Assembly: GCA_038212275.1 (NCBI GenBank)
Contig: JBBQUR010000017.1
Span: 1-64,000 of the forward strand
Length of the DNA stretch: 64,000 nucleotides
Direction: 5' to 3'
Source of the DNA: Planctomycetota bacterium
Lineage (GTDB): Bacteria; Planctomycetota; B15-G4
Of the stretch, positions 27,971 through 53,772 are shown one piece after another; position 1 is the stretch's first letter, and the number at the start of each line of letters is the position of its first letter. Under the pieces are notes generated by a model, which had not been told where the DNA came from, ran no database searches, and saw nothing but the letters and a program-made list of their open reading frames with translations. The position numbers and the translations under genes are program-made.

Positions 27971-28939
27971 TCAGGGCGTGACGCCGCGCAGTCCGTTGCT
28001 TGCCGCGAATCCGTGCGAGCCCAGCGGATCGGGGATCCAGTGCTGGAAGTACAGGGACATATCGCCGGGCAGTCCGGTCGGCCACGGCCCCGAGAGCACG
28101 AGCTGGCCGAAGGCGTCGATCGGCAGCGTGAGCAGGATGTCGGGCGCCGGCACGAGCACGCCGCCCTTGACCGGCGAGTCGACCTCCGTGAAGCCGATGA
28201 CGAGAAAGGTCGTCCCACCGGGCAATGCCCCGGAAAGCTCGAGGCTCATCTCTTCGCCGCCGACGAGCGTGCCCGAGCCGGCGAGCAGCGGTTCGCCGTC
28301 GCTGCCCGGCGTGGCGTGGCCCTGGTCGAACCAGGTGGCGTGGAGGCCGAGCGAACCCGCGATGCGGATGCTCGTGATCTGCACGTTCTGCTGCCCGAAG
28401 GGGAAGCCGAGATCCACGAGCAGCGTGCCGAGCACCACGTTCGTCGCGGAGAAGAAGCCGGCGCCGCCGGCATCCATCCCCGACGTCACGAGTGCGGCCA
28501 CCGACGGCGCGGCAGGCAGCGCCGGATACGCGAGCAAGTCGGAAAAGATCGTGATCGGCGCCGGGCCGGGAATCGGCCCCACGCCCGCAAGCTGCTCGGG
28601 CGGGATCTGATCGGTCACGTCGAAGGGCCCGAAGGGGATGTTCAGGAACTTCACCGTGACGGCGACGGTCGAGATGGCGTAGGTCGTGTCGTAGATCGAG
28701 GCGCCAGGCTCCACCGACGTGGGCGCCGCCCAGTGGATGTCCTGCCCCGAGGTCGTCTGGTCGAAGGTCCACACCGCGGCGTTGGCTGCCAGCGGAAGGC
28801 CCGGACCGGCCGGCGCCGCCCGCGCCACCGCGAGCTGGGCGTGCACGGTCGCGGCGAGGGCCGCAAACAGGGCAATCGACTGCGCGGCACGAGCCAGGCG
28901 ACCGCCCGGTGAAGGGCGCGGGGTGGAGCAACAGGACAT
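27971..28939 (-). CDS. Secreted hypothetical protein with the shared C-terminal domain
   Basis: Signal peptide (IALFAALAATVHA/Q); ends KGGVLVP...WPTGLP...YFQHWIPDP...AASNGLRGVTP; start approximate. Confidence 0.8.
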   Translation of the reverse strand: MSCCSTPRPSPGGRLARAAQSIALFAALAATVHAQLAVARAAPAGPGLPLAANAAVWTFDQTTSGQDIHWAAPTSVEPGASIYDTTYAISTVAVTVKFLNIPFGPFDVTDQIPPEQLAGVGPIPGPAPITIFSDLLAYPALPAAPSVAALVTSGMDAGGAGFFSATNVVLGTLLVDLGFPFGQQNVQITSIRIAGSLGLHATWFDQGHATPGSDGEPLLAGSGTLVGGEEMSLELSGALPGGTTFLVIGFTEVDSPVKGGVLVPAPDILLTLPIDAFGQLVLSGPWPTGLPGDMSLYFQHWIPDPLGSHGFAASNGLRGVTP

Positions 28940-29155
28940 GGGAATCCTCGGCGAGGCGTGCACGGAAGGCGTCGCGGCCCGCGCGACGATGTCGACCGGA
29001 ACATATCCCGCTCCCGACCCGCTGCCTAGCCACTTGCCCGAACGGTGGCGCACGCGGAATCGGGATAGACTTGGCGGTACCACCACGGCCGCCGCTCGTC
29101 GCTCCCGAAACCGCGACGAACAGGCAGGCCGCCAGTCTTCCCAGGGGCCACCTCG

Positions 29156-30850
29156 ATGCGGCAGATCCGCTGGATCGCGCTCTTCGTCTCGCTGCTTCTC
29201 TCGCCCGTCGCCGCCTTCGGCCAGCGGCACAACGTGCTGCTCATCATCGCCGACGATCTCGGCGTGGATCGCATTGGCGCCTACGCCGCCGTGCCTGATC
29301 CGGGGCACACGCCGCGCATCGACGCGCTCGCGGCGCACGGCGTGCTCTTCCAGCGGGCGTATGCGAATCCGGTGTGCTCGCCGACGCGCGCCACGTTGCT
29401 CACGGGCCGGTTCGCCTATCGCACCGGCATCGGCCTCGCGATGAACTACATCCTCGACACGTATGAACTCGCCGGATCCGAAGTGAGCCTGCCGCAGGTG
29501 CTGGCCCCCGTGACGCGCAGTTCGATCGTCGGCAAGTGGCACCTGTCCGCGCAGACCGTCGGCGGGCTGCTGCACCCGCTGCTGGTGGGCTTCGAGCACC
29601 ATCTCGGCTCGATCACGATCCTCGACGGATTCATCGGCAATGCCTACACGATGTTCTCGAAGAACATCGACGGCATCGAGTCGCCCGCGACCACCTACAA
29701 CACGACCGACATCGTGAACGACGCGCTCTCCCAGATCACGGCCTTCGGCAACGACCCGTGGTGCCTCTGGGTCGCGTTCAACGCGCCGCACGCGCCGTAT
29801 CACAAGCCGCCGGCGAACCTGCACACCTTCACGCTGCCGCCGTTGACCAACGCCACCACCGCGATCCACACCAAGGCCATGATCGAGGCCATGGACACCG
29901 AGATCGGCCGCCTGCTCGACAGCATGGATCCCGCAGTCCTCGCGAACACCGTCGTGATCTTCATCGGCGACAACGGCACCGACAAGCCGGCCGCGTCGCC
30001 GCCGATCATCCCCGACAAGGTCAAGGGCACCCTGTACGAGGGCGGCATCCACGTGCCGCTGATCATCTCGGGGCCGGGCGTGACATCTGGCGCTTCCTGC
30101 GCCGCGCTGGTCAACTCGACCGACCTGTTCGCCACCATCGCGGAGCTCTCCGAGGCACCGCACGACACGGCCACCGACTCGATCAGCCTGCGCCCCTATC
30201 TGGAGAACCCGGCACTGCCGTCTCTGCGCAACTTCGCCTACGCGGAGATCTTCCAGCCCAACGGCTTCGGCCCCTACGCATCGCGAAGGCGCACGGCGCT
30301 CAACGACCGCTTCAAGCTCATCTGGAACTACTCGCTCTCCGACACGCCCGGCACTCAGGAGTTCTACGACCTGCAGACCAACCCGACGGAGACGGTGAAC
30401 CTGCTGTTGTCGCCGCCGCTCGCACCGGATGCCCAGGCGGCGTACGCCGCGCTGCGGGCCGTGCTCGTCGAGCAGAAACTGCTCTGGTCCTCGCAGACGC
30501 ACGGCCTGGCGGGCACGACCGGCATCCCGACGCTCACGGGCACGGGCACACTGATCGCCGGAGCTCCCGTGACGCTGTCAGTGGAAGGCGCGCGCCCTTT
30601 CGCGCCGGCGACGATGGTCGTGGGCCTCTCGTACATCATCAAGAACTTCAAGGGCGGCGTCATGGTGCCGGCACCGGATCTCGTGCTCTCCGGCCTCATG
30701 ACCGACGAGTTCGGTTCGCTCGTGCTCCCCGCGAACTGGCCGGCCGGAGTGCCCTCCGACACGAACACCTACTACCAGTGCTGGCTCCTGGACCCGGCCG
30801 GCCCGGCGGGCCTTGCGGCCAGCAACGCGCTGCGCTCGTCCACACCCTGA
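29156..30850 (+). CDS. Secreted formylglycine-type sulfatase with the shared C-terminal domain
   Basis: NVLLIIADDLG, CSPTRATLLTGR (CxPxR), VGKWHL, APHAPYH, FIGDNG, KGTLYEGGIHVPL. Confidence 0.93.
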   Translation: MRQIRWIALFVSLLLSPVAAFGQRHNVLLIIADDLGVDRIGAYAAVPDPGHTPRIDALAAHGVLFQRAYANPVCSPTRATLLTGRFAYRTGIGLAMNYILDTYELAGSEVSLPQVLAPVTRSSIVGKWHLSAQTVGGLLHPLLVGFEHHLGSITILDGFIGNAYTMFSKNIDGIESPATTYNTTDIVNDALSQITAFGNDPWCLWVAFNAPHAPYHKPPANLHTFTLPPLTNATTAIHTKAMIEAMDTEIGRLLDSMDPAVLANTVVIFIGDNGTDKPAASPPIIPDKVKGTLYEGGIHVPLIISGPGVTSGASCAALVNSTDLFATIAELSEAPHDTATDSISLRPYLENPALPSLRNFAYAEIFQPNGFGPYASRRRTALNDRFKLIWNYSLSDTPGTQEFYDLQTNPTETVNLLLSPPLAPDAQAAYAALRAVLVEQKLLWSSQTHGLAGTTGIPTLTGTGTLIAGAPVTLSVEGARPFAPATMVVGLSYIIKNFKGGVMVPAPDLVLSGLMTDEFGSLVLPANWPAGVPSDTNTYYQCWLLDPAGPAGLAASNALRSSTP

Positions 30851-30938
30851 CGAGAGCATGCGCCGTGCGTGCGCAAGGCCGGCCTCGCGGCTCGCAACTC
30901 AGCAACTCGCCGGCCTCGCGGCGTCGGCCGCGCGGCGT

Positions 30939-31784
30939 TCAGGGGTCGATGAGGCCGACGATTTCCTCGCGCAGCGTGGACTCGTGCGTCCACGGCAGGA
31001 AGTGGTCCGCGCCGGTCAGCGACACGACCCTCACGCTTCGGGCATTCCCGAAGTGGCTCTGCATGAAGTCGACATTCGCGAAGGGCACCAGCGTGTCGGC
31101 CGTGCCATGCACGATGACGACGGGACAGGAGAGTCGCGGCAGCTGCGCCTGCAGAAGCTCCAGCTCCGCCTTGAACCCGTCCAGCTCGCGATTGCTGTTG
31201 CGCATCGGGCGCGAGAGCAGCGGTTCGAGCAGCGAGCCGACGTCGTTGTACCAGTGCAATTCCTCGAGGCCCGGATCGAGGTTCCCCGCGACGATGACCA
31301 GCCCGCCCACGCGCTCCGGCGCATCCGTGGCGACTCGCACCACGATCGGCCCGCCGAGAGAGTGCCCGATGAGAATCGGCCAGCGACCGCGCCGCTCCAC
31401 CAGCAGCGGCTCGATCGCGGCGGCTTGCAGCGCCAGCGAGGCGACCTCGCCTTCGGGTTCGCTGGAGCCGAAGCCGGGTCGATCCACCGCGATGGATTCC
31501 CAGCCGGGGATCGGGTCTGCGAGATAGTCGAGCCATGCCGTGGCGTCGCCCGGCGTGCCGTGCACGAAGATGAGGCGCGGGCCCTCCGGATCACCGGAAC
31601 GGAGATAGGCGAGCGTGCCGGTGGGCGCTTCGATCCGCTCGTGCAGCACGTGCGCGAAGCGCGGATCGTGCGGGTCGGGATCGGCCATCACGCAGCTCAG
31701 CGCGGTTGGTACGAGCAGCAGCGCGAGGATGGCCAGCGCGCCGAAGACGGCCGCAAGGCGCAGCCAGCGTGATCGGCGTCTCAT
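30939..31784 (-). CDS. Alpha/beta hydrolase, exported or membrane-anchored
   Basis: FVHGTPG, DRPGFG, GHSLGG, HGTADTLVP, ADHF. Confidence 0.9.
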   Translation of the reverse strand: MRRRSRWLRLAAVFGALAILALLLVPTALSCVMADPDPHDPRFAHVLHERIEAPTGTLAYLRSGDPEGPRLIFVHGTPGDATAWLDYLADPIPGWESIAVDRPGFGSSEPEGEVASLALQAAAIEPLLVERRGRWPILIGHSLGGPIVVRVATDAPERVGGLVIVAGNLDPGLEELHWYNDVGSLLEPLLSRPMRNSNRELDGFKAELELLQAQLPRLSCPVVIVHGTADTLVPFANVDFMQSHFGNARSVRVVSLTGADHFLPWTHESTLREEIVGLIDP

Positions 31785-31794
31785 GCCGGGCAGC

Positions 31795-32988
31795 TCACGT
31801 CGGACGAGGCCGATCGGAGGGCGTGGGCGGCAGCCGTGCGCCGCGCAGGATTGCGCCGGAGCCGAAGCGTTCGCGCACGGCATCGGTCGCGCGGTCCAGT
31901 GCACGACTGCGCTCCGCCTGCGCATCCACGAACAAGGCGCCTTGCCCGACGCCCGCGCCTAGCTGCCCGAGGCTGACTCCGATGAGCCTCACCGGCTGGA
32001 ACTCGCGCGCGGCCCAACGCTGCCAGAGAAGGCACGCGGTGTCGCACACCACGTCGGTGCGATCGGTCGGCTCCTCGAGCGTCATCGAGCGAGTCACCGT
32101 CTTGAACGCACCGTAGCGGATCTTGAGCGTGACGGTGCGCGCGAGCAGCGCGTGCCGGCGCAGCCGCACGACGACGCGCTCGGCCTGGCCGCGCAGCACA
32201 CTGCGCACCACGTCCGGATCTTCGAGGTCGCGCTCGAAGGTCTGCTCCGCTCCGAGGCTGCGCGCTGCGGAATCCGGCGTCACCGGCCGATCGTCCTCGC
32301 CGCGCGCAAGGCGCCACAGGTGTTCGCCTTCGGAGCCGAGGCGCGCGATGGCCCGGGCCTCCGTGAGTGTCGCGAGGTCCCCGAACGTGGCCAGGCCAAG
32401 CCGGCGCAGGCGCTCCTCCTGCACGGGGCCGACTCCCCACAGCCGGCCGATGGGCAGCGCAGCCACACGCGTGCCGATGTCGGCCGCCGTCAGTACGGTG
32501 AGCCCATCGGGCTTCTCCCAGTCGCTGGCGAGCTTGGCGAGAAACTTGTTGGGTGCGATGCCGACCGATGCCGTCAGCCCGGTGACCTCCCGCACGCGCC
32601 GCTTGAGTGCGGCGCCGATCTCCCGCGGCGTGCCGAAGAGGCGCTCGGTGCCGGTCACGTCCAGAAAGGCCTCGTCGATCGAGAGCGGCTCGACCAATGG
32701 CGTGACTTCTTCGAAGAGCGCGAACACGCGTTCGGAGAGTTCCCGGTAGCGTTCGCCGCGCGGCGGCACGATGACCGCGTGCGGGCAGCGGCGTTTCGCG
32801 ACCGCGACGGGCTGAGCCGAATGGCAGCCGAAGACGCGCGCCTCGTAGCTGGCCGCCGCGACGACGCCGCGCGGCCCGTCGTGCCCGACGAGCACCGGAC
32901 GGCCGGCGAGGCGCGGGTCATCGAGCTGCTCGACGGACGCGAAGAAGGCGTCCATGTCCACGTGCAGGATCGCCCGCTCGCCGCTCAC
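31795..32988 (-). CDS. dinB: DNA polymerase IV
   Basis: HVDMDAFFASVE, AASYEAR, PLSIDEAFLD, APNKFLAKLASD, TLKIRY; GTGA overlap with the upstream gene. Confidence 0.96.
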   Translation of the reverse strand: MSGERAILHVDMDAFFASVEQLDDPRLAGRPVLVGHDGPRGVVAAASYEARVFGCHSAQPVAVAKRRCPHAVIVPPRGERYRELSERVFALFEEVTPLVEPLSIDEAFLDVTGTERLFGTPREIGAALKRRVREVTGLTASVGIAPNKFLAKLASDWEKPDGLTVLTAADIGTRVAALPIGRLWGVGPVQEERLRRLGLATFGDLATLTEARAIARLGSEGEHLWRLARGEDDRPVTPDSAARSLGAEQTFERDLEDPDVVRSVLRGQAERVVVRLRRHALLARTVTLKIRYGAFKTVTRSMTLEEPTDRTDVVCDTACLLWQRWAAREFQPVRLIGVSLGQLGAGVGQGALFVDAQAERSRALDRATDAVRERFGSGAILRGARLPPTPSDRPRPT

Positions 32989-35237: not shown

Positions 35238-36320
35238 TCACCGAACCGGGAAGAAAAGAAGCGCCGCCCGGACGGCGAGGTATGCGAGCACCAGCAGCAG
35301 GGCCGTGCGGTGGCGACGCGCCAGTCGCAGAGCCCGCTCCCACGTCGCCTCGCGATAGGCCGACACCTGGCGGCCCGACAGGAAGTTGCGGAGATCGGCG
35401 CCCATCTCGCGGGCATCGGCGTAGCGCGACGCCTGCTCCGAAGCGAGCGCTTTGCGGCAGATGGCCGCGAGCGGCCGCGGCACCCCGGTGGCGCGCCAGG
35501 CCTCGGCGGAGGCGGGCACGGATCCCGTCAGCATCACGACCAGAAGCGCGCCCAGCGCATGGACGTCCGTGCGGCAGTCCATGCGATCGATCGCGCCGAC
35601 GGCCTGTTCGGGCGCCATGAAGCCCGGCGTTCCCAGCACGGTGCCGTGATCGGTGAGCGTGTCGTCATCCTCGGTGACGGCCCGAGCGAAGTCCCCTGCG
35701 CCGACGCGTGCGGTGTGCGTCGCCGCCGGCCACGTCACGGGACTTCCCGGAACCCCGGCAGAGTCGACAGCCTCGGCAGCGTCGTCGTGTTCGGCGGTAC
35801 GCGTGAGGCGCTTGGCCACGCCCCAATCCAGCACGAGCACCTCGCCGAATGCGCCCACCATGACGTTCGCGGGCTTCAGGTCGCGATGGATCACGCCGTG
35901 AGCATGGGCGAAGGCGAGCGTGTCGCAGAGTCTCTCCATGAGCGCGAGGCGTTCGCGCAACGGCGGCATCGTGCGCAGATGGTCGTCGAGCCGGCGGCCA
36001 CGCACGAGTTTCATCACGTAGTAAACACGCCCGTCTGGCAATTTCCCCACGTCGTAGACGGGCACGATGCCCGGGTGCTCCAGCCGCGCGATGATGCGTG
36101 CCTCGCGCACGAGCCGTTCGGCCAGGTCGGGAGCGAGCACCGCGTCATCGAGCAGCTTGAGCGCCACCTCGCGCCGAAGCTCCGTGTCCAGGACGCGATA
36201 GACGCGCGCCATGCCCCCGCGTCCCGCCAGGCCGAGCAGCTCATAGCGCGTGCCGCTCAGATCCGGCTCCGCGAGCAGGTCCCGGAGATGGTGCAGCGTG
36301 CGATCGGGCAGGAACGTCAT
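35238..36320 (-). CDS. Hanks-type Ser/Thr protein kinase with C-terminal TM helix
   Basis: GRGGMARVY, VALK, HPGIVPVYD, IHRDLKPANV, DWG, GTPGFMAPEQ; ATGA overlap with the sigma factor gene. Confidence 0.93.
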   Translation of the reverse strand: MTFLPDRTLHHLRDLLAEPDLSGTRYELLGLAGRGGMARVYRVLDTELRREVALKLLDDAVLAPDLAERLVREARIIARLEHPGIVPVYDVGKLPDGRVYYVMKLVRGRRLDDHLRTMPPLRERLALMERLCDTLAFAHAHGVIHRDLKPANVMVGAFGEVLVLDWGVAKRLTRTAEHDDAAEAVDSAGVPGSPVTWPAATHTARVGAGDFARAVTEDDDTLTDHGTVLGTPGFMAPEQAVGAIDRMDCRTDVHALGALLVVMLTGSVPASAEAWRATGVPRPLAAICRKALASEQASRYADAREMGADLRNFLSGRQVSAYREATWERALRLARRHRTALLLVLAYLAVRAALLFFPVR

Positions 36321-37182: not shown

Positions 37183-38865
37183 TCAGGGCGTGACCACCTG
37201 GAGCGCGTTGCTCGCGGACATGCCGGACTCGACGCCGGGATCCTGGCTCCACCATTGCATCGTGAGCGTGAGGCCTCCCGGCACTCCGGCGGGCCAGACG
37301 CCTGCGATGCTCAGCTTGCCGGCCGCGTCGGTCGGGATCGCCATCGAGATGAAATCGGGACGCGGCACCATCGTCGCCCCCTTGAAGGGTGCATTGATCA
37401 CGGCCAGGCCGACAACCAGTGCCGAAGGTGCGAACGGTGCGGCGCCGGCGAGCGAGAGCGAGTAAGGCTGCTCCGGATGCAGGTTTCCCTTCGCGGTGAA
37501 GAACTCGCTGCCCTGGTCCCCGGGCCCGCCGGACGCGGGGAGGCCGAGGTTGAGCCACACCGTCGCCGAGTACACGCGCGCCTCGCCGGTTCCGAGGCCG
37601 TTGACCGTGTTCGCGAAGGGCAGGCCGACGATGATGTCGTCATTCCCGTCGCCGTCCACATCGTGGCCGCCGCCGACGGCGTAGCCGAGCTGTTCGTTCG
37701 GGCCGCCGTGATAGGTGTAGAGCGCCTCGCCGGTGGCCCCGCTGAAGACGGTCGCTCCGCCGCAGTTGCTGCCGTCGCAATGATCGTGCGGTGCGCCGAC
37801 GATCAACTCGGGTCGGCCATCGCCGTTCATGTCACCCGCCCCGAAGACCGCCGTCCCGAACAGATCGCCCGCGGCCACGCCGTGGAACTCGCGCAGCAGC
37901 GTTCCGTCGGCTCCCGAGAAGAGGTAGGCGCCGCCGGAGTTCACGGCGCCGACGTCATCGAGCCTCGCGCCCACCGCGATGTCGTCCGTGCCGTCGCCAT
38001 TCACGTCGCCGGCGGCCGCGACCGAGGAGCCGAAGTCGTCCTCGTTCCCCGCACCGTGCCAGGTGAAGAGCGTCTGGCCGTCGGCGCCCGAGACCAGCCT
38101 CACGCTGCCGACCGTGATACCCGCCAAGGTGTCGCCGGGGCATCCCACCAGCAGGTCGGCGTGACCGTCGTGATTCACGTCGCCCGCACCGGCCACGGAG
38201 GCGCCGCAGCGGTCGTAGGCGGAGTCGCCGGTGATCAGGAAGAGCGTCATGCCCGTGGCCCCCGAGACGACGCGCGCGCTGCCCGAACTCAGGCCGTGCG
38301 GGTCGTCCGACGGCGCGCCGATGATGAGGTCATCGTGCCCGTCTCCGTCGACGTCGCCGGCACCGGCCACCGCGCTGCCGAAGTAGTCATAGGCGGAATC
38401 GCCCGACAGCGCGAAAAGCACGGCGCCCGTCGCGCCGGAGAACAGGGTCGCCGTCCCGCTGCCCTGCCCCATCACGTCGGCCTGCGGAGCTCCGACGACG
38501 AAATCCGGGAAGCCGTCGGCATCCGCATCGCCTGCTCCCGCCACCGCACGGCCGAAGTCGTCGCCGAGGCTCGTGCCCGAGATCGTCTTCATCGTGGCGC
38601 CCGTTCGGCCCGAGATGAGCAACACCGCTCCCGTCGGCCCCACGAAGATCGTCTGGAAGGCCGGTGCGCCCACGATCACATCGGCATATCCGTCGGCGTC
38701 GACGTCGCCCACGAAGGCCGTCGACGTCCCCCGGCCTTCGTCGACGGCGAGGCCCACCGAATCGATCAGGACAGCCTGTGCGCTCAACCGCGAGGCGCAC
38801 ACCAGCACGAGGCTGAGGCCGAGGCTGAGGCTGAGGTCATGGAAAGGCCGGGTCACGAAGTGCAT
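37183..38865 (-). CDS. Secreted FG-GAP (integrin-alpha-like beta-propeller) protein with the shared C-terminal domain
   Basis: Seven GDVxGDGxxDxxVGAP / FGxAVAGAG repeats; signal peptide. Confidence 0.92.
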   Translation of the reverse strand: MHFVTRPFHDLSLSLGLSLVLVCASRLSAQAVLIDSVGLAVDEGRGTSTAFVGDVDADGYADVIVGAPAFQTIFVGPTGAVLLISGRTGATMKTISGTSLGDDFGRAVAGAGDADADGFPDFVVGAPQADVMGQGSGTATLFSGATGAVLFALSGDSAYDYFGSAVAGAGDVDGDGHDDLIIGAPSDDPHGLSSGSARVVSGATGMTLFLITGDSAYDRCGASVAGAGDVNHDGHADLLVGCPGDTLAGITVGSVRLVSGADGQTLFTWHGAGNEDDFGSSVAAAGDVNGDGTDDIAVGARLDDVGAVNSGGAYLFSGADGTLLREFHGVAAGDLFGTAVFGAGDMNGDGRPELIVGAPHDHCDGSNCGGATVFSGATGEALYTYHGGPNEQLGYAVGGGHDVDGDGNDDIIVGLPFANTVNGLGTGEARVYSATVWLNLGLPASGGPGDQGSEFFTAKGNLHPEQPYSLSLAGAAPFAPSALVVGLAVINAPFKGATMVPRPDFISMAIPTDAAGKLSIAGVWPAGVPGGLTLTMQWWSQDPGVESGMSASNALQVVTP

Positions 38866-39310
38866 GTGTCTCCCTCCGGCGAGGGCCGTTGCCCGCGCCA
38901 CACGTCTCGGCGGTTTCTTGCGAAAGACGCGCGCCCGCTTTCACGACGCGTCCTGACGGACTCCGGGAACGGCCTCGATGCTGCACCGAACGGACGCGCG
39001 GGGAGTGACTCGCCGGTGACCAGTGACCAACGAGAGCGTGTCCGGGTTTCGCAACGTCGCAGGTAGAAGCCGGGCTCGTCGGAGTGACCGAAGCGCGGTG
39101 ATTCGAGTGCGACTCATGCAGCGGGGCTGCGGCACCATCCCGATCCGTGTGCCGCACGAAACACGGGATGTCGCGCACCCGCATCTCCGTCAGGCCAGGT
39201 GCTGCGCCAGACTTTCGTCAATCCTCCTGCGCCGAATCTCAAGAGGACATCAAGAAAAAGTCTGGCACCGATGAAGCGCAGATGGCCGGTGTCTCGGCTC
39301 CCGCTTCGTG

Positions 39311-43167: not shown

Positions 43168-45681
43168 CTACGGCAGCAAAGTCACCTGCAGCGCATTGGA
43201 GAAGCCGAGGCCCTGCGGCTGTCCGGCATCGATGAGGACGCACTGCAGAAAGAGGACCGCGGGGCCGTTGCCACCCGCGATGCCCGGGATGGAGATGTCG
43301 CCGTCCGCGTCCGTGGTCAACGGCACGATGACAGCCCACGGCTGCGGCACGAGCAGGCCGCCCTTGAGCGGTCCCGGCGCGTTCGTCGCACCCACGACGA
43401 GGAAGGCAGGTGCGAAGGCCGGCCCGCCCGTCAGCTGGAGAGCCGCGCTGCCGCCGGTAGACAGGTCGTCGCCACACAGGGACAGCGTCGAGGAGCCGGG
43501 GCCGCCGAAGCCGAGGTCCGGCTGGCACACGACGGTCGAGGTTCGCGGGAGATCGCGCGCGAGGATGGTGATCGTCGCCGTGTCCACCGCATGCATGCCG
43601 CTGCTGTCCTCGGCGGACACCTGCAGGACATGCGTGCCCACGCTGAGATCGGCCACCGAAGTGAGCCGTCCCGATCCGAGCGAGCCGTCCAGACTGGAAG
43701 ACCATTGCAGGCTCTGTCCCTCCAGAGCGTGATCCTCGAGATCCCAGCCCGAGCTGTGCAGGATCACCGTGGCGCCTTGCCGGAAGACGCTGCCATCGTC
43801 GGGAGTGACGATCTGCACCCATGGTGCGTTGCCGCCGCCGAGCTGCGCCGACGAGAGATTGAGCGGCTGCGTACGCGTGACGGTCGTGTTGAGGCCGTCG
43901 CTGGCGAGCAGCTCGAAGAAGGCCTTGCCGGCGACGGGCGCGGGCAGCGCGTTCAGATCGACGTCCACGCTGGTGAGGTCGAGGCCCGAAGCGAGCGGCA
44001 CGAAGCGCTTGCCGCCGTCGGGGCTGTAGCGCAGATAGCAGTGAAGTGCGTCACCGTCCGCGTCCGAACCGGTCCACGAAACGACGAGCTTGCCCGCGTT
44101 CACGACTCCGTTGATGGGTGACGTGAAGCCGACGTGCGGAGCCCAGGACGTGCGCTGCCGTTCGAGCGGCAGCGCATGGGCCCCGCCCGCTGCGGCAACG
44201 ACGACTCGATCGATCGAATCGACGCCCTCGGCATTCAGCGGCAGGATCGCCGTGAAGGGCACGACGGGATCGGCCGGGCCCGCGGAGTCCGCATCGCCGC
44301 CACCGCACTCGGGGCACTCGTCCGCGGAGCTTCGCGCCAGCAGCGGAAGTTCGGTGACCAGCGTGGATCCGGCGAAGGCACGCACCACGAGATTCGCCTC
44401 GTGCGGCGAGGCAGGCACCGATGCCACGGCTGCGGGCAGGGTCAGCATGTCGGTCAGCCGGATTTCGCCCGACTGCCTGTTCCACAGGCCCGCGAGCAGC
44501 AGTCCAGGCGGCGCGTTCGTCGATGCCGCGGTCAGTGCGGGCGCATCGAACAGCGGGAGATTGCAGAAGTAGTTGAAGGTGCTCGGCGCGACCCAGGCCT
44601 CCTGCGTGAGGAGCCCGGCGAACATGATGTCCTTCAGCGTGGCCGCCTTGATCTGCGGCAGGTTCTGCGTGAGGTGGAGGTGGTGCTCCACATCCACGCC
44701 GATGACGCCGGTCGTCAGGCTGTTGTGCTGCAGGCCCACGTTGTGACCAAGCTCATGAGCGAGCGTCCGCTGGTAGCGGATGAGTTCCGTGTTCCCCATC
44801 GACACGTTGCCGTTGATGTAGGACTGGCCGTTGTAGGACAGGCCGCCCGGCACGAAGCCGTAGAGGAAGTCGGGCTTGGGCTGCATGAGGTTGATGTCCA
44901 CCTGCAGCGCATTGAGCAGGTCGACGCCGGTGCCCGCGAGCGACGATGTCCACAACTTGCTGGGGGCGTCGGTCCGGTGGTAGCGCCAGTCGGGCGCCGG
45001 GTAGATGCCCTGCACGAAATTGTCACCCATGCCGGGCTCGATCCGCGCTGCATCCGGAAGATTGGGAATGCTGCCGCCACCCGGCCTGTAGTCGATCGGC
45101 ACGTAGGCCAGCTCGGGCGCGCGGAAGTACGCGAACGAGAGCGGGACGCTCGAGAAGGTATTGTTGGATGTGTTCGCCTCGGCCACGAAATTGGGACCGG
45201 CCGGATTCACTTCTGCGGTGAGCACGACCTGGGCGGATTCGGGAGCCAGGAAAATGAAATTCAGCGAGCCGTCTTCGACGGTGAAATCGATGGGAAGCTT
45301 TGCCGGGAAAGGCCCGTTGTCGGAGTAGATGGGCGAGTCGGCCGCCTCGACGCCGTTCACGTAGATGCGCAGCAGGCCATCCACGAGGGGAGTCGCGGGC
45401 AGCGGGTTGGTGACGCGTACGGAAACTCGAGCAAAGGTCGTGCGCCCGGCGACCAGCGGCGTGGTGCCTGTCTGCACGGCCTGATTCACCTCGATCTTGG
45501 AGATTGAGTAGTCGAGAACCTGAGCCGCCACCGCGGGGACGGCCACCGCGAGCACGAGACCGCCTCGCGCGAGGCTCTTCAGGATGCCGGCAGAACGCGA
45601 GGGATCACGGGAACAAGCTTGATTTCGAGACAAGGGAGAACTCCATGGTGCCACGACGTACGCCGACGAAAGCAGGCGCAT
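43168..45681 (-). CDS. Secreted zinc metallopeptidase-like protein with Ig-like domains and the shared C-terminal domain
   Basis: Signal ...AVAVPAVAA/Q, IEVNQAVQ, TLAHELGHNVGLQH zincin motif, DIM Met-turn, DADGD/DLED Ig-like modules; start uncertain. Confidence 0.85.
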   Translation of the reverse strand: MRLLSSAYVVAPWSSPLSRNQACSRDPSRSAGILKSLARGGLVLAVAVPAVAAQVLDYSISKIEVNQAVQTGTTPLVAGRTTFARVSVRVTNPLPATPLVDGLLRIYVNGVEAADSPIYSDNGPFPAKLPIDFTVEDGSLNFIFLAPESAQVVLTAEVNPAGPNFVAEANTSNNTFSSVPLSFAYFRAPELAYVPIDYRPGGGSIPNLPDAARIEPGMGDNFVQGIYPAPDWRYHRTDAPSKLWTSSLAGTGVDLLNALQVDINLMQPKPDFLYGFVPGGLSYNGQSYINGNVSMGNTELIRYQRTLAHELGHNVGLQHNSLTTGVIGVDVEHHLHLTQNLPQIKAATLKDIMFAGLLTQEAWVAPSTFNYFCNLPLFDAPALTAASTNAPPGLLLAGLWNRQSGEIRLTDMLTLPAAVASVPASPHEANLVVRAFAGSTLVTELPLLARSSADECPECGGGDADSAGPADPVVPFTAILPLNAEGVDSIDRVVVAAAGGAHALPLERQRTSWAPHVGFTSPINGVVNAGKLVVSWTGSDADGDALHCYLRYSPDGGKRFVPLASGLDLTSVDVDLNALPAPVAGKAFFELLASDGLNTTVTRTQPLNLSSAQLGGGNAPWVQIVTPDDGSVFRQGATVILHSSGWDLEDHALEGQSLQWSSSLDGSLGSGRLTSVADLSVGTHVLQVSAEDSSGMHAVDTATITILARDLPRTSTVVCQPDLGFGGPGSSTLSLCGDDLSTGGSAALQLTGGPAFAPAFLVVGATNAPGPLKGGLLVPQPWAVIVPLTTDADGDISIPGIAGGNGPAVLFLQCVLIDAGQPQGLGFSNALQVTLLP

Positions 45682-45908: not shown

Positions 45909-45939
45909 GCACCCTCCCCCCCATTGAGTGAGGTCTCTC

Positions 45940-46413
45940 ATGGCTCTCAAATCCATGTCCACGCGTGAGCTCCGTCGCGAATTGGAGCGTCGCGAGGCGG
46001 GCGCCAGCAAGTTGAAGGCGCAGCACGCGGACCTCGCCAAGCGGCTGGCAGCGGTCGAGTCCGAACTCGCCGACCTCGGCGTGGAGAGCGTCCCGGCTCG
46101 CAAGGGCCGCAAGCCCGGCCGTCCGGCGGGCGCAGGCAAGGCCAAGGGCAAGGCCGGTCGTCCCAAGGGAAGCAGGAACAAGGCAAAGGGCAAGGGAAGC
46201 AAGCGCGCGAAGAACGAGATGACGCTTCCCGAGGCCATCATCTCCGGCGTGAAGGTCGGCGCCACCGTCTCGCCCGCGGAGGCTGCCGTGACCGCCAGGA
46301 AGGCCGGATACAGGAGTTCGAGCTCCAACTTCGGCATGATCGTCGCCAATGCGCTGGCCAAGGACAGCCGCTTCAAGAAGCTGGGACGCGGCCAGTACCA
46401 GCGCTCGAAGTGA
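45940..46413 (+). CDS. Putative nucleoid-associated protein, paralog 1 (coiled coil, Lys-rich linker, winged-helix-like domain)
   Basis: SMSTRELRRELERR; KPGRP / GRPKGSRNK; SPAEAA..RKAGY..NF..VANAL..FKKLGRGQY; GAGGT SD. Confidence 0.8.
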   Translation: MALKSMSTRELRRELERREAGASKLKAQHADLAKRLAAVESELADLGVESVPARKGRKPGRPAGAGKAKGKAGRPKGSRNKAKGKGSKRAKNEMTLPEAIISGVKVGATVSPAEAAVTARKAGYRSSSSNFGMIVANALAKDSRFKKLGRGQYQRSK

Positions 46414-46619: not shown

Positions 46620-47069
46620 ATGAGTGATTCCGTACAAGACCTTTCCTCGATGTCTCTCGATGACCTCCGTCGTGAATTGAGGCGGCGCGAGGACGCCGTG
46701 TCGCGCCTGCAGGAAAAGCGCGCCAGGGTGGCTGCCGAGCTCGCCATGGTCGAGGCCGAGCTCCGCAAGTGCGGCGGCGAGGCAGCTCTCTCCGGCGGCG
46801 AGCCGGGGGATGAGAAGGCTCCGTCGGTTCCGCGAGGTCCGTCGCGCTCCGGCACGCCTCGACCCAGGAACACGCTCAACCTCGCGGATGCGCTCACGGC
46901 TGCGGTTGACGCGGGCATGGTGGTCTCACCCACCGAAGCAGCCGACCTGGTCCGGAAGAGCGGTTATCTCACCAACTCGAAGACATTTACCCAGACCGTC
47001 ACCGTGGCGCTGTCCAATCACTCGGGCTTCCGGCGCGTGGAGCGCGGTCGCTACGAGTGCATCCGCTGA
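46620..47069 (+). CDS. Putative nucleoid-associated protein, paralog 2
   Basis: SMSLDDLRRELRRR; SPTEAA..RKSGY..TF..VTVAL..FRRVERGRY; alternative GTG start at 46410 overlaps the paralog 1 stop. Confidence 0.78.
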   Translation: MSDSVQDLSSMSLDDLRRELRRREDAVSRLQEKRARVAAELAMVEAELRKCGGEAALSGGEPGDEKAPSVPRGPSRSGTPRPRNTLNLADALTAAVDAGMVVSPTEAADLVRKSGYLTNSKTFTQTVTVALSNHSGFRRVERGRYECIR

Positions 47070-47121: not shown

Positions 47122-47937
47122 ATGTCCGCGACCACGTCCGCGCCGTTCGCCGACCCTGAGGGCCATGCAAGCGAGTTGCCGGTCGTGTCGCCGGTCGGCG
47201 CGCCGGTCGCCAACGCGGCTTCCGATACGGCGGCTGCGCCCGTCGCGACAGCGCCCTCCGCGCCTGCCGCCGAGACGCAGACCGCCCGGCCTGAAGCCGC
47301 AAAGCCGCTGCCGCGCCGCGAGCCGCGCGACGTCGGCACATCCCGGAGCCGGCGCCCGGATGCAGTGCCAGCCGTGATGTCGCTGCCGCCGCTCGAGTCG
47401 GGCTTTCCGTGGGAGCGCTCGCCACTCGCGGGCATCTCGAGCACGAAAATCCTGGCTGAGCTGCAGCGCCGACGGGAGCGATCTGCGCAACTCCTCGCGG
47501 AACGCGATCGCATCCTCGAACTCATGGACGCCATCGAGGAACGCCTGACGATGATCGGGCACGATGGCGCAAAGTTCGCCACCACCGAACGACCACGGCC
47601 GGCCCCAACCGGTCGCCGAGGTCAGCCCGGCAAAGCCGGCAAGCCCGGCCAGCTCGGCAAGCCCGGCAAAGCCGACAAGTCCGGCAAGCCTGGTCGCCGA
47701 GGCCAGCCCGGTCAGCGCAAGACTTCCAAGGCCCGGAACACCGTCAGCCTGCGTGAGGCCATCGCGCTGGCCGTCGAGCCGCGCGCCCTGGTCACGCCTG
47801 CAGAGGCCGCCGAACTCCTGAAGCGCAACGGCTACCGCTCCACGGCGGCCAATTTCGCGACGCTCGTCGGCAATGCGCTCGCCAGGGACGAGCGCTTCCG
47901 CAGGCTCGGCCGCGGATCCTACGAACGGATCGGCTGA
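47122..47937 (+). CDS. Putative nucleoid-associated protein, paralog 3 (N-terminal Pro/Ala extension, GKP-repeat linker)
   Basis: ISSTKILAELQRRR; GQPGKAGKPGQLGKPGK; TPAEAA..KRNGY..NF..VGNAL..FRRLGRGSY. Confidence 0.78.
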   Translation: MSATTSAPFADPEGHASELPVVSPVGAPVANAASDTAAAPVATAPSAPAAETQTARPEAAKPLPRREPRDVGTSRSRRPDAVPAVMSLPPLESGFPWERSPLAGISSTKILAELQRRRERSAQLLAERDRILELMDAIEERLTMIGHDGAKFATTERPRPAPTGRRGQPGKAGKPGQLGKPGKADKSGKPGRRGQPGQRKTSKARNTVSLREAIALAVEPRALVTPAEAAELLKRNGYRSTAANFATLVGNALARDERFRRLGRGSYERIG

Positions 47938-48721: not shown

Positions 48722-48757
48722 GTCGCCTCGGGGGCGACGGCGCCGCACAGCGCCCGC

Positions 48758-49198
48758 TCAGTCGGCCGATTCGACGAGGCGCTTGAGTCGTTCGAGGTTG
48801 CCCGCCACCTGCTGCTGATTGGCGACGCGAATCATGGGCGCCATGAGCCGCAGCGTGAAGCTCTTCAGGTCGATGGACACGACGTGCGAGACGCGCGTGC
48901 CGTCGGGCAACGCGTCGAAGCGCAGCGCTACCGCCACGCCGAACATCTCGTCCGCGAACTCCATGCGCAGCTCGCGGCCAGGCGCCCATGCCGTGACACG
49001 GCCGGTCATGCGCACTTCGTGACCTCCCTGCTGGTGCACGTAGTGCAGCAGCGCCCCGTGCCCCCATCCCTCCGGCGACGCGAGCGACAGCGCCACGCAG
49101 CCCTGCAACCACTCCGGCGCGCGACTCACGTCGCACACGCATGCGAAGAGGACCGCGGCGGGGCGTCGGATGTCCAGACTGGCTTCGGCTTCGATCAT
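48758..49198 (-). CDS. SRPBCC / polyketide cyclase family protein
   Basis: IRRPAAVLF..V.D..RAPEW, GTRV, NLERLKRLVE. Confidence 0.85.
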   Translation of the reverse strand: MIEAEASLDIRRPAAVLFACVCDVSRAPEWLQGCVALSLASPEGWGHGALLHYVHQQGGHEVRMTGRVTAWAPGRELRMEFADEMFGVAVALRFDALPDGTRVSHVVSIDLKSFTLRLMAPMIRVANQQQVAGNLERLKRLVESAD

Positions 49199-49211
49199 GT
49201 TGCGCCGGCGC

Positions 49212-50456
49212 TCATGAGCTGGCGCCAGAGCAGGCGAAGGCCTGGAAGGCGCCGGGCAGCGCGACCTCGAGCAGCTCGAAGTCCTCGCTACACGCGCCGA
49301 GGGCATGCGGAACATGCGCCGGGATCACGAAGGCATCGCCCGGGGCGATGCGCACGGCGCCGGTCGCCGCCGCGTCGTGACCAAGGTCCGTTCCGGCTGC
49401 GCTCACGGCGTCACCGGCCCCATGAGCGCGATCGAGGGTCGCGACACGCAGCATCGCGTGCCCGCTCAGCACGAAGGAGAACAGCAGCTCCGCGTCGTGG
49501 GACCGGATTTCCTCAGCCGATGAGGAACCCTTGCCTTGTGCGCCGCGGGCGCGCAGCACGCGCACGCCGGCCAGCCCGCAGGTGGCCTCCGAGATGCCCG
49601 TTTCGGCGGACTGCAGGCCGGGGCGCCAGGAGGCCGCCCACGTGGACTCGGCCGCGCGGTGGCAGACGAAACGCTGGCCGGCATGCGTGCGCTCGCGTTG
49701 CACCACGGAATCGGGAAGCGCCAGCGCGTGATCCGCGCAGGTCTCGTGCTCTGCCGGACACGTGACCTCGACGACCTCCAGGCCCGGGGAACACTCGAGC
49801 ACGCGGTGCCGGATGCGCGGCGGCTGCAGCAGGCAGTCGCCAGCCTGCAGGACGAGCGATGGTCCCTGGCCCTCGTAGGCCACGCGCACCCAGCCGCGCA
49901 CGAAGTGGATCACCTGGAAGTGGATCTTGTGAAAGTGCACGTAGTCGGGCACGGGGCCGCCGTCCCTGATGCGGATGTGCGACGCGATGTATCGGCCGCC
50001 CAGCCGGTCCGGGATCAGGTCGCGGTATTCCATCCCGGCGCGGCCGCGCTTCCATGCGTCGGGTGCACCGGCGCCGTCCTGCCGTGTCAGCACGAAAGCG
50101 GGACGCATCGGCGGCAGGACGAGCTCGGGATCCGCCTGTGCCAGCACGATGCGCGTGCCGTTGGGCGCGGTGAGTTCGAGCGCGCCGCCGGCGACCGCAG
50201 CCCGCTCCGCCGCATGCAGGCGAAGCGTGACGGCGCCCCCCGCGCCGAGCGCGCCCCCCGCGCCGGCACGCTGCCGCTCGAGGCGCAGCCTCAGGCCGGC
50301 GCCGGACAGGATGGCGACGAGCGGATCGTCCGCCGGGATGATCGACTCGATGCAAAAACCCAGTCGCTCGACGAAGAAGCGTGTCGTGGCATCGAGCTCG
50401 ACGCACGGCAGCACGACCTCGCCCTGCGTGCATGCCGGCGTGCGCGACGGATCCAT
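49212..50456 (-). CDS. VOC-like N-terminal domain plus tandem cupin domains
   Basis: FFVERLGF (glyoxalase-like), GRAGMEYRDL, VHFHKIHFQ, GDCLLQPPRIRH, second cupin PGDAFVIP..PH. Confidence 0.82.
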   Translation of the reverse strand: MDPSRTPACTQGEVVLPCVELDATTRFFVERLGFCIESIIPADDPLVAILSGAGLRLRLERQRAGAGGALGAGGAVTLRLHAAERAAVAGGALELTAPNGTRIVLAQADPELVLPPMRPAFVLTRQDGAGAPDAWKRGRAGMEYRDLIPDRLGGRYIASHIRIRDGGPVPDYVHFHKIHFQVIHFVRGWVRVAYEGQGPSLVLQAGDCLLQPPRIRHRVLECSPGLEVVEVTCPAEHETCADHALALPDSVVQRERTHAGQRFVCHRAAESTWAASWRPGLQSAETGISEATCGLAGVRVLRARGAQGKGSSSAEEIRSHDAELLFSFVLSGHAMLRVATLDRAHGAGDAVSAAGTDLGHDAAATGAVRIAPGDAFVIPAHVPHALGACSEDFELLEVALPGAFQAFACSGASS

Positions 50457-50531
50457 GCCGCGATGATCCCAGATCCTGTGCCGAGCGGCGAGTGCGTGCA
50501 GCCGAAGGGCGTCACGCCCCTTCCGTGAAGA

Positions 50532-51830
50532 CTACGGCTCGTTCACGTAGATGAGGTGATCCGTGGGACGAACGCTGCCCATGATCGGGGTCGGGAACGG
50601 ACCGGCCAGCGGCGCGGTGTAGTTGTCCACGAGATCGGTGAAGTTGGTCGGCGAACCTGGGATCGACAGGACGGTCCAGCCGTTGCGTGTCGATGCGCCG
50701 TACTTCTGCTCGAGGAAGCTGCCCGTGCATGCATCCTGGTGAACGAACAGGCCTTCGTCGACCCAGACGGATTCCGTGCTCGGATACATGTTGGGATTGG
50801 TCCACCGGCCGATGCTCGTGCTCACCATGTGAAGCCAGGGCAGCGTCGGGAAGTTGATGTTGAGAGAGGTCCAGGCGCCCGGAGTCCCGGCCGTGGTCGT
50901 GCACTGCGTCTGTCCCGTGAACTGCCGCAACGTCTGCTGTTTGGGGCTGATCGACAGCGTGCACACGCAGCCCGCGCCGAGCGGCGTCATCGAGCCGAAA
51001 GCGACGGGATCCTCGACGGTGCATGCAAAGGGCGGCAAGCCGCTGGTGGTCACGCTGCGCGTGGCTTCCGCGAAGACATTGCCGCCGGGAGCGACGACGT
51101 TGACCGGCACGAACGGCTGCAGCGCCGAGTGTGGTGCGACGATCGCGAAGGACGAACTCGCGTGAAAAACGCCTGGCCGGTCGGAGAGTCCCGGCGCGTG
51201 GATGAAGCGGTCACACGCATGGTAGAGCACGAGAACGTTCTCCCAGGTGCCCGCCGCAGTGCAGTTGGTGTAGTCCACGTAGCCGTAGAAGAAGGCGGTC
51301 GGGTGCGGGCCGACGGGCGCAATGCAGTTGGGGACAGGACAGGGAGGCCCGCCTGGCGCCGCCAGTGAAACGAGGTCGGCCTTTGCCGTGAAGCGCCAGA
51401 CCTGAGCCACCGTGCCTGTCGTCGTGATTTCGTCCCAGGTGCGCGTGTAGTCCAGCGTCAGCTGGCCGCCGAGCAGCGGCAGGCCGGAGCTGCCGTCGAA
51501 CACCGTGAGCGTCGTGGTGTATTCGGCGCAGAACGGCTGCGCGGGCGGGGTCCAAGCCACCTTGAGCGTGCGCTGGTTGTTGACGGTGCACTGTCCCCAG
51601 CAGATGCCGAGGCCCGGCAGCGACGCTCCGGGAAACACCGGCAGGTTGGGGAGCGTGGCCGCGCAGCACGGGCCGAGATCCAGGTTGTCGGGCCCGAAGC
51701 ATTGCGCCGAGACGACGGGCGCAGCGGGAAGGAGGAGCGCCCCCAGCATCGCGAGCATCGCGATCTTTGTGATCTTTGTGATCTTCGCGAGCCTTGCGAT
51801 CGTTGCCGGCACGGCGGGTCGACGGATCAT
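50532..51830 (-). CDS. Secreted cysteine-rich hypothetical protein
   Basis: Signal peptide ending VSA/Q; about 15 Cys in the mature part; no recognisable family. Confidence 0.8.
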   Translation of the reverse strand: MIRRPAVPATIARLAKITKITKIAMLAMLGALLLPAAPVVSAQCFGPDNLDLGPCCAATLPNLPVFPGASLPGLGICWGQCTVNNQRTLKVAWTPPAQPFCAEYTTTLTVFDGSSGLPLLGGQLTLDYTRTWDEITTTGTVAQVWRFTAKADLVSLAAPGGPPCPVPNCIAPVGPHPTAFFYGYVDYTNCTAAGTWENVLVLYHACDRFIHAPGLSDRPGVFHASSSFAIVAPHSALQPFVPVNVVAPGGNVFAEATRSVTTSGLPPFACTVEDPVAFGSMTPLGAGCVCTLSISPKQQTLRQFTGQTQCTTTAGTPGAWTSLNINFPTLPWLHMVSTSIGRWTNPNMYPSTESVWVDEGLFVHQDACTGSFLEQKYGASTRNGWTVLSIPGSPTNFTDLVDNYTAPLAGPFPTPIMGSVRPTDHLIYVNEP

Positions 51831-52125
51831 GCGCGAAACGTGCAGCACGCAGCACCTCCTTGGAATGAGCAGGCCCCTGCCGAAGTCCCGAAGTTGCAGC
51901 CGTGGTGTGGTGCGCGGAGCCCGGGCGCATGACCACCTGCGCCGCGGATGATATGGCACGACCCGAGATTCGAACAGGCGGCGGCGGGAGAGGAATCCTC
52001 CCGCGTGAGGCGCGCGGCCCGGGCCCGAGAAGACTCAGGATGCGAGCCTCGCCGGGCGCTGGCGGGCGCCACGCGGCGGACGCCACCGTCAGGCGCACCG
52101 CAGCGCAGCGCGGCGCGCGGACGGC

Positions 52126-53772
52126 TCAGGGCGTGGTGCCCTTCACGGCGTTGCTCGCGGCAAAGCCGGACGGCCCGGCCGCGTCCTGAACCCAGAACTG
52201 GTAGTACGTGGCGAGGGCCGACGGCACGCCGACCGGCCACAGTGTCGCGATCGCGACGGTGCCGCCCGCGGTCGTCGGAATCGCGAAGACGAAGTTCACG
52301 TCCGGCACCATGAGGCCGCCCTTGAAGGGTGCGCCGAGCGCCGAAAGGCCGAGCACGAACCACGCCGGGCTGTTGCCGAGCGCCTGCGCGAGCGACACGC
52401 CGAGAGCACTGCCGGCGCTGAGCGTGCCCGTGAGCTCCAGCGTCGGATCGCCCGACGTGCCGGCAAGGCTGCTGCCGAGGTCGAGCCACGCGGAGGGAAA
52501 TTCCCGGGCGCCGATGTCCACGACCGGCGCCGGGCCGATGCCGGTGTCGGCGACGGAGAGCACGTCCGCGAGGCGCGGCTGGTGCGCGTAGTCCAGCAGG
52601 GCGCCGGCCGGCACGGCCGAGGAATCGCCGGCATCGATGCCGGGCGAGGCGGAGGTCGGCGAGAAATCACCCCCGACGAGATCCAGCAGGCCGGGATCCG
52701 CGGACAGATTGCCCGTGCCGGCGAAGCCGCCCTGCACGATGGAGTGCGTGACGACGGTCGCCGCATTCACCTGGTTGCCCGCGGCCTGCGCGCCGCCGGG
52801 CCCGGTGTTGTCCCAGAAGATGCAGTTGACGACCGTGGCATTGGTGGCGGCCTGGTTGCGCAATCCGGCGACGGCGTTCACCGTGGACGTGTTGCCGATG
52901 ATCGTGCAGTTGCGGATGCGCGGATCGCCGCCCGTGCCCACCCAGATGGCCCCGCCGCCGCCCGAACCGGTGGCCGTGTTGCCGGTGAAGACGCAGTTGT
53001 TCACCAGCACGCCGTTGGTGGAGAAGACCTCCAGCGCGCCGGCGCGAGCGGCCGTGTTGCCCTTGAACAGGCAGCGCTCGTAGAGCACCGCCCCGCCGGA
53101 GGCGATGTCGAAGGCGCCGCCGAAGGACCCGCCGACGCCGTCCTCGAAGCTGCAATCGGTGAAGCTCGGCGCCGCGCTGCTGCTGATGTAGCCGGCCGCG
53201 CCGCCGAAGCTGCTGCGGTTGCCGACGAAGCGGCAGTTGCGCACGGTCGGGCTCGCGCCGCTCAGGCACAGGATGCCGCCGCCGCGGTCCTGATTGCCTC
53301 CGTTGACAGTCGCGGCGCCGCTCGAAATCACGAAGCCGTCGAGCACCGCGCTCGGGCCGGTGCCCGTCGTGGTGATGAGGTGGATGGAGTTGTCGCCGAA
53401 GGCCAGTGCGCCATCGTTGCCCGCAAGATCGCCGCTGAGCACGCTGGGCGCCGTGCCGAAGGGCGGGCGCTGGGCTGGCGACGTCTCCGTCCCGAGGAAG
53501 GACCCGTAGATCGCGACGTCATTCTTGAGCGCGAAGGCCACGGTGCGCGACAGCGTGGCTGTCGGGAGGCAGGTGCCTTGCGCCACGAAGATCTGGTCGC
53601 CCGCGATGGAGACGGCGAGAGCGGCCTGCAGGCCGTGCGGCCCCTGAAATGCGTCGGCCCAGCTCGAGCCGTCGTTGGCCCCCGTCGCGAGGTCGGCATT
53701 CACGTGGTGCGTGCCGGCCGCCACGGCAGGCGAGAGCGCGAGCAGGCACGACAGGGCAAGGGCGATGTGCAT
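52126..53772 (-). CDS. Secreted right-handed beta-helix protein (GGA/FxxN repeats) with the shared C-terminal domain
   Basis: NDGSSWADAF, VAQG, LSGDL, LDGF, repeated NCxFxGN and GGA motifs, SPGIDAG, VDIGARE. Confidence 0.88.
   Translation of the reverse strand: MHIALALSCLLALSPAVAAGTHHVNADLATGANDGSSWADAFQGPHGLQAALAVSIAGDQIFVAQGTCLPTATLSRTVAFALKNDVAIYGSFLGTETSPAQRPPFGTAPSVLSGDLAGNDGALAFGDNSIHLITTTGTGPSAVLDGFVISSGAATVNGGNQDRGGGILCLSGASPTVRNCRFVGNRSSFGGAAGYISSSAAPSFTDCSFEDGVGGSFGGAFDIASGGAVLYERCLFKGNTAARAGALEVFSTNGVLVNNCVFTGNTATGSGGGGAIWVGTGGDPRIRNCTIIGNTSTVNAVAGLRNQAATNATVVNCIFWDNTGPGGAQAAGNQVNAATVVTHSIVQGGFAGTGNLSADPGLLDLVGGDFSPTSASPGIDAGDSSAVPAGALLDYAHQPRLADVLSVADTGIGPAPVVDIGAREFPSAWLDLGSSLAGTSGDPTLELTGTLSAGSALGVSLAQALGNSPAWFVLGLSALGAPFKGGLMVPDVNFVFAIPTTAGGTVAIATLWPVGVPSALATYYQFWVQDAAGPSGFAASNAVKGTTP

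Follow-up and report, generated by a model that had tools for sequence, protein, structure and literature searches.

A C-terminal beta-sandwich domain on many exported proteins of one Planctomycetota group: a candidate docking or anchoring module of the cell envelope

The described systems closest to the one reported here are those in which many unrelated exported proteins carry the same small module at one end. Foremost among them are the C-terminal domains (CTDs) of type IX secretion in Bacteroidota, which comprise type A (Por_Secre_tail, PF18962/TIGR04183) and type B (CHU_C, PF13585/TIGR04131). The others are the dockerin-cohesin and SLH modules, the bacterial pre-peptidase C-terminal domain (PPC, PF04151) and the PEP-CTERM, LPXTG and GlyGly-CTERM signals. 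Here we describe a domain of about 122 residues that ends five proteins encoded in a stretch of 64,000 nucleotides from a Planctomycetota bacterium (assembly GCA_038212275.1, contig JBBQUR010000017.1, positions 1 to 64,000 of the forward strand; "the window" hereafter means this whole stretch). It belongs to none of the type IX CTD, dockerin, PPC and tripartite-signal families, which it resembles in deployment only.

As in type IX cargo, a single small beta-sandwich stands at the very C-terminus of unrelated proteins that begin with a Sec signal peptide, tens to hundreds of proteins per genome are so tagged, and the arrangement is restricted to a lineage. However, the domain described here is longer (about 122 residues, in 11 predicted strands) and belongs to a different phylum, 45 diverse members gave no match to Por_Secre_tail/TIGR04183 or CHU_C/TIGR04131 at E ≤ 10, and whereas type IX CTDs are always C-terminal, four N-terminal copies and one internal copy occur here, with one of the N-terminal arrangements conserved. 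Dockerin-cohesin and SLH modules provide our preferred working analogy, as they too are single modules borne at one end, usually the C-terminal but in some cases the N-terminal one, by many exported proteins that are not related, and the domain could, like them, hold proteins on one cell-surface partner. Unlike dockerin, which is helical and binds calcium, it is predicted to be all-beta; Dockerin_1 (PF00404) matched neither the 45 copies nor the genome, while the control genomes did match, and no cohesin-like or scaffold partner was identified here. PPC is likewise a small beta-sandwich with which secreted enzymes end, but it shows no sequence match, and the cargo of our domain is far wider and makes up a far larger share of the proteome. 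Finally, the PEP-CTERM, LPXTG and GlyGly-CTERM signals consist of a short motif, a hydrophobic helix and a basic tail and are linked to a sortase, whereas our domain has no hydrophobic tail.

The original prediction, made from the letters of the window alone, had claimed that one homologous C-terminal domain is shared by five unrelated secreted proteins. All five open reading frames proved to be real, with their stops at the positions first given (Table 1). Their N-terminal portions are mutually unrelated by Pfam scan, and each begins with a signal-peptide-like stretch, as judged by eye. The last 125 residues or so could be aligned over 133 columns, with 32-44% identity to the first sequence and 18 invariant columns, among which are K-G, V-P, Q, D, S-N and the final P. 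A profile built from the five copies found 129 places in the genome containing the window and recovered the window copies themselves at E-values of 1e-43 to 3e-58, so that their homology is far above chance. The alignment and the profile thus bear out both the shared domain and the residues said to be kept in all five proteins. The accompanying claim that there is no transmembrane helix, PEP-CTERM or LPxTG motif also held, as none of the five sequences has a hydrophobic tail and all are predicted to be all-beta at this end. The metallopeptidase-like protein carries the motif HELGHNVGLQH and has Reprolysin matches below threshold only. In this window, with a G+C content of 68-71%, an 843-aa frame that runs to 30502 over the hypothetical-protein gene (ATG at 28939) and overlaps the sulfatase gene was rejected as an antisense-type high-GC artefact.

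Table 1. Window genes whose products end in the shared domain, and one neighbouring gene given for context
Feature	Position	Strand	Length	Terminal domain	Remarks
Hypothetical exported protein	27971..28939	-	322 aa	27974-28345	No Pfam family; stop codon 27971-27973
Sulfatase	29156..30850	+	564 aa	30470-30847	Pfam Sulfatase 26-331, SGSH_C
FG-GAP beta-propeller protein	37183..38901	-		37186-37572	Start uncertain (gene call: 38865); Pfam FG-GAP
HExxH metallopeptidase-like protein	43168..45681	-		43177-43539	Start uncertain (gene call: 45555)
Right-handed beta-helix protein	52126..53772	-	548 aa	52129-52503	Pfam Beta_helix
Ser/Thr protein kinase gene	35241..36320	-			Two genes downstream of the FG-GAP gene, same strand; context, not part of the domain

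To count the domain in its own genome (4.65 Mb in 40 contigs, 91% complete), we called 3385 genes de novo. An iterated profile run on six-frame open reading frames gave 141 places, 136 of which end within 10 residues of a stop, and the called genes carrying the domain numbered 137 (about 4%), with exactly one copy each. In 132 of these the domain is at the extreme C-terminus, in four it lies at the N-terminus just after the signal peptide and in one it is internal. Placement away from the C-terminus, which would have told against the original prediction had it been frequent, is thus confined to 5 of 137 copies, and four of the five carriers of a non-C-terminal copy themselves have a signal-peptide-like start. 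A signal-peptide heuristic, crude and permissive enough to indicate enrichment only, was positive, when any in-frame start was allowed, for 123 of 133 genes with the domain and 1254 of 2484 without it, and for 94 of 137 and 815 of 2484, respectively, with the starts as called. Beyond this genome, a 45-sequence profile searched against 1.84 billion representative proteins returned 18,633 clusters at E ≤ 0.001 (985 at E ≤ 1e-30), and in the 150 best of them the domain is present in a single copy that ends 0-11 residues from the C-terminus. Proline is the last residue in 87 of the 132 C-terminal copies of the genome and in 128 of these 150 representatives. Many matches, nearly all of them C-terminal and on very many unrelated exported cargoes, are what the original prediction had led us to expect, and the layout supports well the view that the domain is a handle shared by many exported proteins and directing them all to one fate.

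That the domain was undescribed, as first proposed, agrees with our searches: in Pfam and NCBIfam no model of a sorting, anchoring or binding domain was matched by the 45 diverse copies, even at E ≤ 10, and neither our literature search nor a passage search in PMC11685898 yielded a description of it. Its neighbours in the ESM Atlas are unnamed clusters in which Planctomycetota is the commonest phylum; where cluster members or cargo homologues bear names, these are "hypothetical" or refer to the N-terminal part, and the organism label is mostly "Planctomycetota bacterium". A locus search started from one protein gave three loci, all in metagenome-assembled genomes of Planctomycetota. An AlphaFold2 model computed from an alignment of 45 paralogues is a compact sandwich of 11 strands (pLDDT 96.7, pTM 0.89), so that the domain can confidently be predicted to be a self-folding, generic Ig-like beta-sandwich. 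Foldseek found nothing in the PDB at E ≤ 0.001 with this model, and two VIA-align runs led to a plateau of immunoglobulin and macroglobulin domains with best Z-scores of 8.0-8.7, a range that VIA-align itself calls generic, at a root-mean-square deviation of 2.5-2.8 Å over 86-101 residues. The best superpositions are with macroglobulin (MG) and Ig-like domains such as those of A2ML1, TEP1r and LILR, but identities are 6-15%, the scores are in the generic range and there is no functional link. Judging from the model, then, no solved structure stands out as a relative.

The paralogues of the genome are old, with a mean pairwise identity of 34%. Against this divergence a few positions stand out (profile numbering): G78 and Q99 are kept in all 137 copies, P87 in 93%, D104 in 88%, S/T114 in 97%, N115 in 81% and K57 in 77%. 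Among the 150 best foreign representatives, where conservation is biased upward because they were picked by score, D104 is present in 150, Q99 in 149 and N115 in 145. Judged from the alignment, the near-invariant polar residues K57, Q99, D104, S/T114 and N115 are a likely contact site.

What the domain is attached to was assessed by a Pfam scan covering 102 of the 137 tagged proteins. The largest named group consists of 23 FG-GAP/VCBS propellers, and about 41 proteins have no Pfam family. The remainder includes DUF642 proteins (4), DUF7948+SBBP proteins (3), matrixin (M10) peptidases (3), beta-helix proteins (3), sulfatases (2), LTD+endonuclease proteins (2), CHRD (2) and TSP_C (2) proteins, a phytase-like protein (1), GSDH and Kelch proteins, one ice-binding-like protein, an alpha/beta hydrolase, NHL/SGL propellers, a CCP_MauG di-haem peroxidase and a polytopic glycosyltransferase of the PMT_2 type. 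An MtrC-like multihaem cytochrome with nine CxxCH motifs (G000 C25:40935-43262; L065:6530-8857, minus strand) is also tagged at its C-terminus; its signal peptide is a plain one, lacking the lipobox cysteine, and no multihaem gene is adjacent. Its counterparts in Shewanella are lipoproteins that reach the surface by type II secretion. The tagged proteins form an exported, envelope or surface set and not an enzyme class with one common substrate.

This composition bears on three alternative explanations. The domain could be a substrate-targeting module, similar to a carbohydrate-binding module (CBM), that tethers enzymes to a polymer outside the cell instead of to the cell itself. The beta-sandwich is the commonest fold of CBMs, the weak fold matches of the model include CBM56, the beta-glucan-binding GNBP3 and the N-terminal domains of GH66 enzymes, and the conserved residues are polar (Q, D, S/T, N). 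Nevertheless, no CBM family was matched by sequence, those fold matches are as generic as the immunoglobulin and macroglobulin domains with which they are tied, tandem copies were never seen, and most of the cargo is not carbohydrate-active, consisting of FG-GAP propellers, cytochromes, a peroxidase, nucleases and peptidases; we consider this explanation improbable. To much the same degree we doubt a role as a pro-domain of the PPC kind or as an aid to folding or stability, trimmed after passage through the periplasm and with no common partner. Its C-terminal position on many exported enzymes and its compact, apparently self-folding structure would suit such a role, but none of the 45 members scanned matched PPC, the domain is also found on non-enzymes and on a membrane enzyme, and the persistence of near-invariant, surface-type polar residues despite low paralogue identity suggests a shared ligand. 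Least probable of all, and in our opinion very unlikely, is that the domain associates with itself and so joins the tagged proteins into a coat on the surface: nothing but its high copy number and the presence of sandwich edges that could in principle pair speaks for this, there is no positive evidence, and the copies occur singly on very different cargo.

Some proteins that depart from the usual layout bear on the mechanism. In two neighbouring giant proteins (1670 and 1297 aa), a divergent copy stands between the signal peptide, which it follows directly, and a series of malectin, TIG, GSDH and Kelch domains, and the arrangement of the 1670-aa protein, from signal peptide and domain through malectin to Kelch, was found in 13 of 15 genomes of the same family at 36-46% identity. 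A protein with a metallo-beta-lactamase fold also has an N-terminal copy, in which all the conserved polar residues are kept. In addition, the PMT_2-type glycosyltransferase (G000 C20:72814-75138; L044:4814-7138, plus strand) has at least eight hydrophobic segments and, on a (Gly-Ala)n tether at its end, the domain, and this polytopic inner-membrane enzyme cannot itself be secreted. Because N-terminal copies are conserved, the architectures show that the domain would need no free C-terminus, and the glycosyltransferase fusion shows that it could work on a carrier that remains in the inner membrane. Of the two roles inferred in the original prediction, export tag or attachment tag, the first is weakened accordingly, as both arrangements speak against any signal that must have its C-terminus free, and they fit docking or anchoring better.

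Given that N-terminal copies are conserved, that a membrane enzyme is among the fusions and that polar residues are invariant, we rank first the reading in which the domain docks or anchors exported cargo to a shared partner in the cell envelope, and hold it tentatively, giving it a little less than an even chance. By analogy, we favour the idea that it acts as an anchor of the dockerin or SLH type, as opposed to a signal requiring a free C-terminus. In one large group of Planctomycetota, proteins exported by Sec would have the domain as their common handle; after export across the inner membrane the domain would bind one shared envelope partner, a protein or glycan at the outer membrane or cell surface, through contacts made by its near-invariant polar residues, and this binding would hold there cargoes as diverse as propellers, hydrolases, peptidases, nucleases and haem proteins. 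We infer both the existence of the common partner and the retention at the envelope.

Several observations weigh against docking or anchoring. The glycosyltransferase-domain fusion is known from one gene only; the enzyme part was found in 3 of 80 genomes searched, all of family f84 and there without the domain, and it was not found in five genomes of the same family as ours in a stricter first look that may have missed weak matches. The extreme C-terminal bias and the terminal proline would be equally expected of an export or processing signal. The conserved residues may be purely structural. Finally, no partner was found: within four genes of the tagged genes genome-wide, only regulators are enriched. 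As the enzyme part of the glycosyltransferase is not conserved together with the domain, we rejected this enzyme as a conserved machinery component and regard it as cargo.

The explanation that we rank second is that the domain is recognized for transport across the outer membrane, either as an analogue of the type IX CTD or by a secretin-type, type II-like system that would read it as a folded signal, and is perhaps later removed. We regard it as possible but rather unlikely. The layout is that of type IX cargo, with a signal peptide, diverse cargo and one terminal beta-sandwich on 137 of 3385 genes; the extreme C-terminal position and the terminal proline are conserved; eight secretin-domain matches in the genome mean that channels for folded proteins are present; and the MtrC-like cytochrome carries the domain and lacks a lipobox. 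On the other side, the conserved N-terminal copies rule out a signal that depends on a free C-terminus, but not a folded one that is independent of position, and one copy sits on a polytopic inner-membrane enzyme. SprA_N and Por_Secre_tail (PF18962) had no match in the 91%-complete genome, although this is weak evidence since the control genomes, 14 in the case of SprA_N, were silent too; the PEP-CTERM model was also silent in the genome and in the control, and the exosortase models had no match in the genome. Genomes with the domain have a median secretin count of 6 (n = 45) and those lacking it one of 5 (n = 31); as these counts are much the same, we discarded secretin expansion as a correlate of the domain. 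Every genome searched, ours and 80 others, has several secretin-domain genes (2-13), so that a multiplicity of secretin-type channels is general in the phylum. No conserved neighbouring transport gene appeared near the tagged genes, either in the genome-wide neighbour analysis or among the genes of the window.

The dedicated machinery that had been inferred at first consequently found no support: near the tagged genes there are regulators only, the sorting and secretion models are silent (as are some of their controls), and secretin numbers are alike. It is still conceivable, though we think it doubtful, that the domain marks the substrates of an undescribed pathway of outer-membrane delivery or attachment with its own receptor or translocon, special to one large uncultured Planctomycetota group and serving about 4% of its proteome, which would be a counterpart of type IX secretion in the PVC (Planctomycetes-Verrucomicrobia-Chlamydiae) superphylum.

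The regulators in question are of two types. Genes for Ser/Thr kinase-TPR proteins lie within four genes of tagged genes in 36 of 82 cases (p 7e-6; for example L086:1-2940), and those for planctomycete-type extracytoplasmic function (ECF) sigma factors in 6 of 7 (p 6e-4; for example L049:3464-4057), where no correction was applied to the p-values and the genes cannot be taken as independent of one another. This enrichment speaks of regulation, not of transport, and suggests that the tagged proteins are under dedicated envelope-signal regulation. The kinase listed in Table 1 is shorter than those of the enriched kinase-TPR family and is given as context only. Within the window, the five tagged genes are scattered among unrelated genes, including those for a DinB-type polymerase, an aminotransferase, a sulfotransferase, a kinase, and NUDIX, CHAD and SGNH/AlgX-like proteins.

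To outline the distribution of the domain we searched 401 sampled Planctomycetota genomes, 82 of which were positive at E ≤ 1e-5. Its occurrence is all-or-none by family, with positives in f1 (10/10), f2 (8/8), f3 (4/4), f7 (12/12) and f14 (8/8) and no positives in f6 (0/20), f15 (0/23), f24 (0/11) and f27 (0/16), in agreement with the early claim that the domain is lineage-specific. In a quick RpoB tree of 27 genomes, from which G069 (no match) and G279 and G094 (fragments only) were left out, all 14 clearly positive genomes fall within one subtree of 18 (SH-aLRT 82), which also holds two genomes with weak matches and two negative ones (f27, f36). A single origin of the domain is compatible with this tree. 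Because the positives cluster in one subtree, tests of co-occurrence have low power, apart from the nested negative lineages. Two genomes of family f57 have weak relatives of the domain internal to CCP_MauG proteins, and these may reflect the form of the module before it spread. In both (L098:9080-12190 in G187 and L099:9273-12977 in G220) the relative lies about 330 residues before the end of a long CCP_MauG di-haem peroxidase. Another genome, G265, has a single strong match, on a 14-kb contig. In these genomes with one or two copies, the f57 pair and G265, no adjacent candidate for a sorting enzyme emerged.

The domain family is large, real and unnamed, and this much is solid. How proteins are placed in or beyond the outer membrane of Planctomycetota is poorly known, and one unnamed domain on about one gene in 25 of a genome and in 18,633 public clusters defines the likely surface or envelope proteome of an uncultured group. 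The domain, with its invariant Q, D, S and N residues, is a concrete bait for its partner, and once the family has a name, thousands of proteins now called "hypothetical" could be better annotated. New in this work are the genome-wide census, the conserved N-terminal architecture, the non-conserved glycosyltransferase fusion, the enrichment of regulators, the clade pattern and the negative tests for machinery.

A few further observations concern the cargo and the surroundings of the tagged genes. Among 120 listed homologues of the DUF7948/SBBP cargo from elsewhere, Dockerin_1 is present in 3, FlgD_ig in 1 and Por_Secre_tail in 0. In the domain-negative genome G034, two adjacent DUF7948/SBBP paralogues (C4:58576-61383 and C4:61274-64111; L132:1063-3870 and L134:1033-3870) end in another C-terminal region of about 150 aa, which has no Pfam match and 29% mutual identity; a single-sequence search with this region found these two proteins and one of G187, with no spread over other cargo. 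Just upstream of the first tagged gene of the window, a 432-aa beta-helix protein without the terminal domain is encoded at 26479-27774 (plus strand), and a gene for a rhomboid-family intramembrane protease lies about 3 kb from that tagged gene, at 23777-24706 (minus strand). Rhomboid relatives process some C-terminal sorting signals; we set this one aside as a sorting protease, as the domain has no transmembrane helix to cut. Lastly, three small paralogous open reading frames (45982-46410, 46698-47066 and 47374-47934, all on the plus strand) adjoin the peptidase gene; one of the three shows a weak collagen-like Gly-X-Y match, and four of the seven members of their family in the genome lie near tagged genes.

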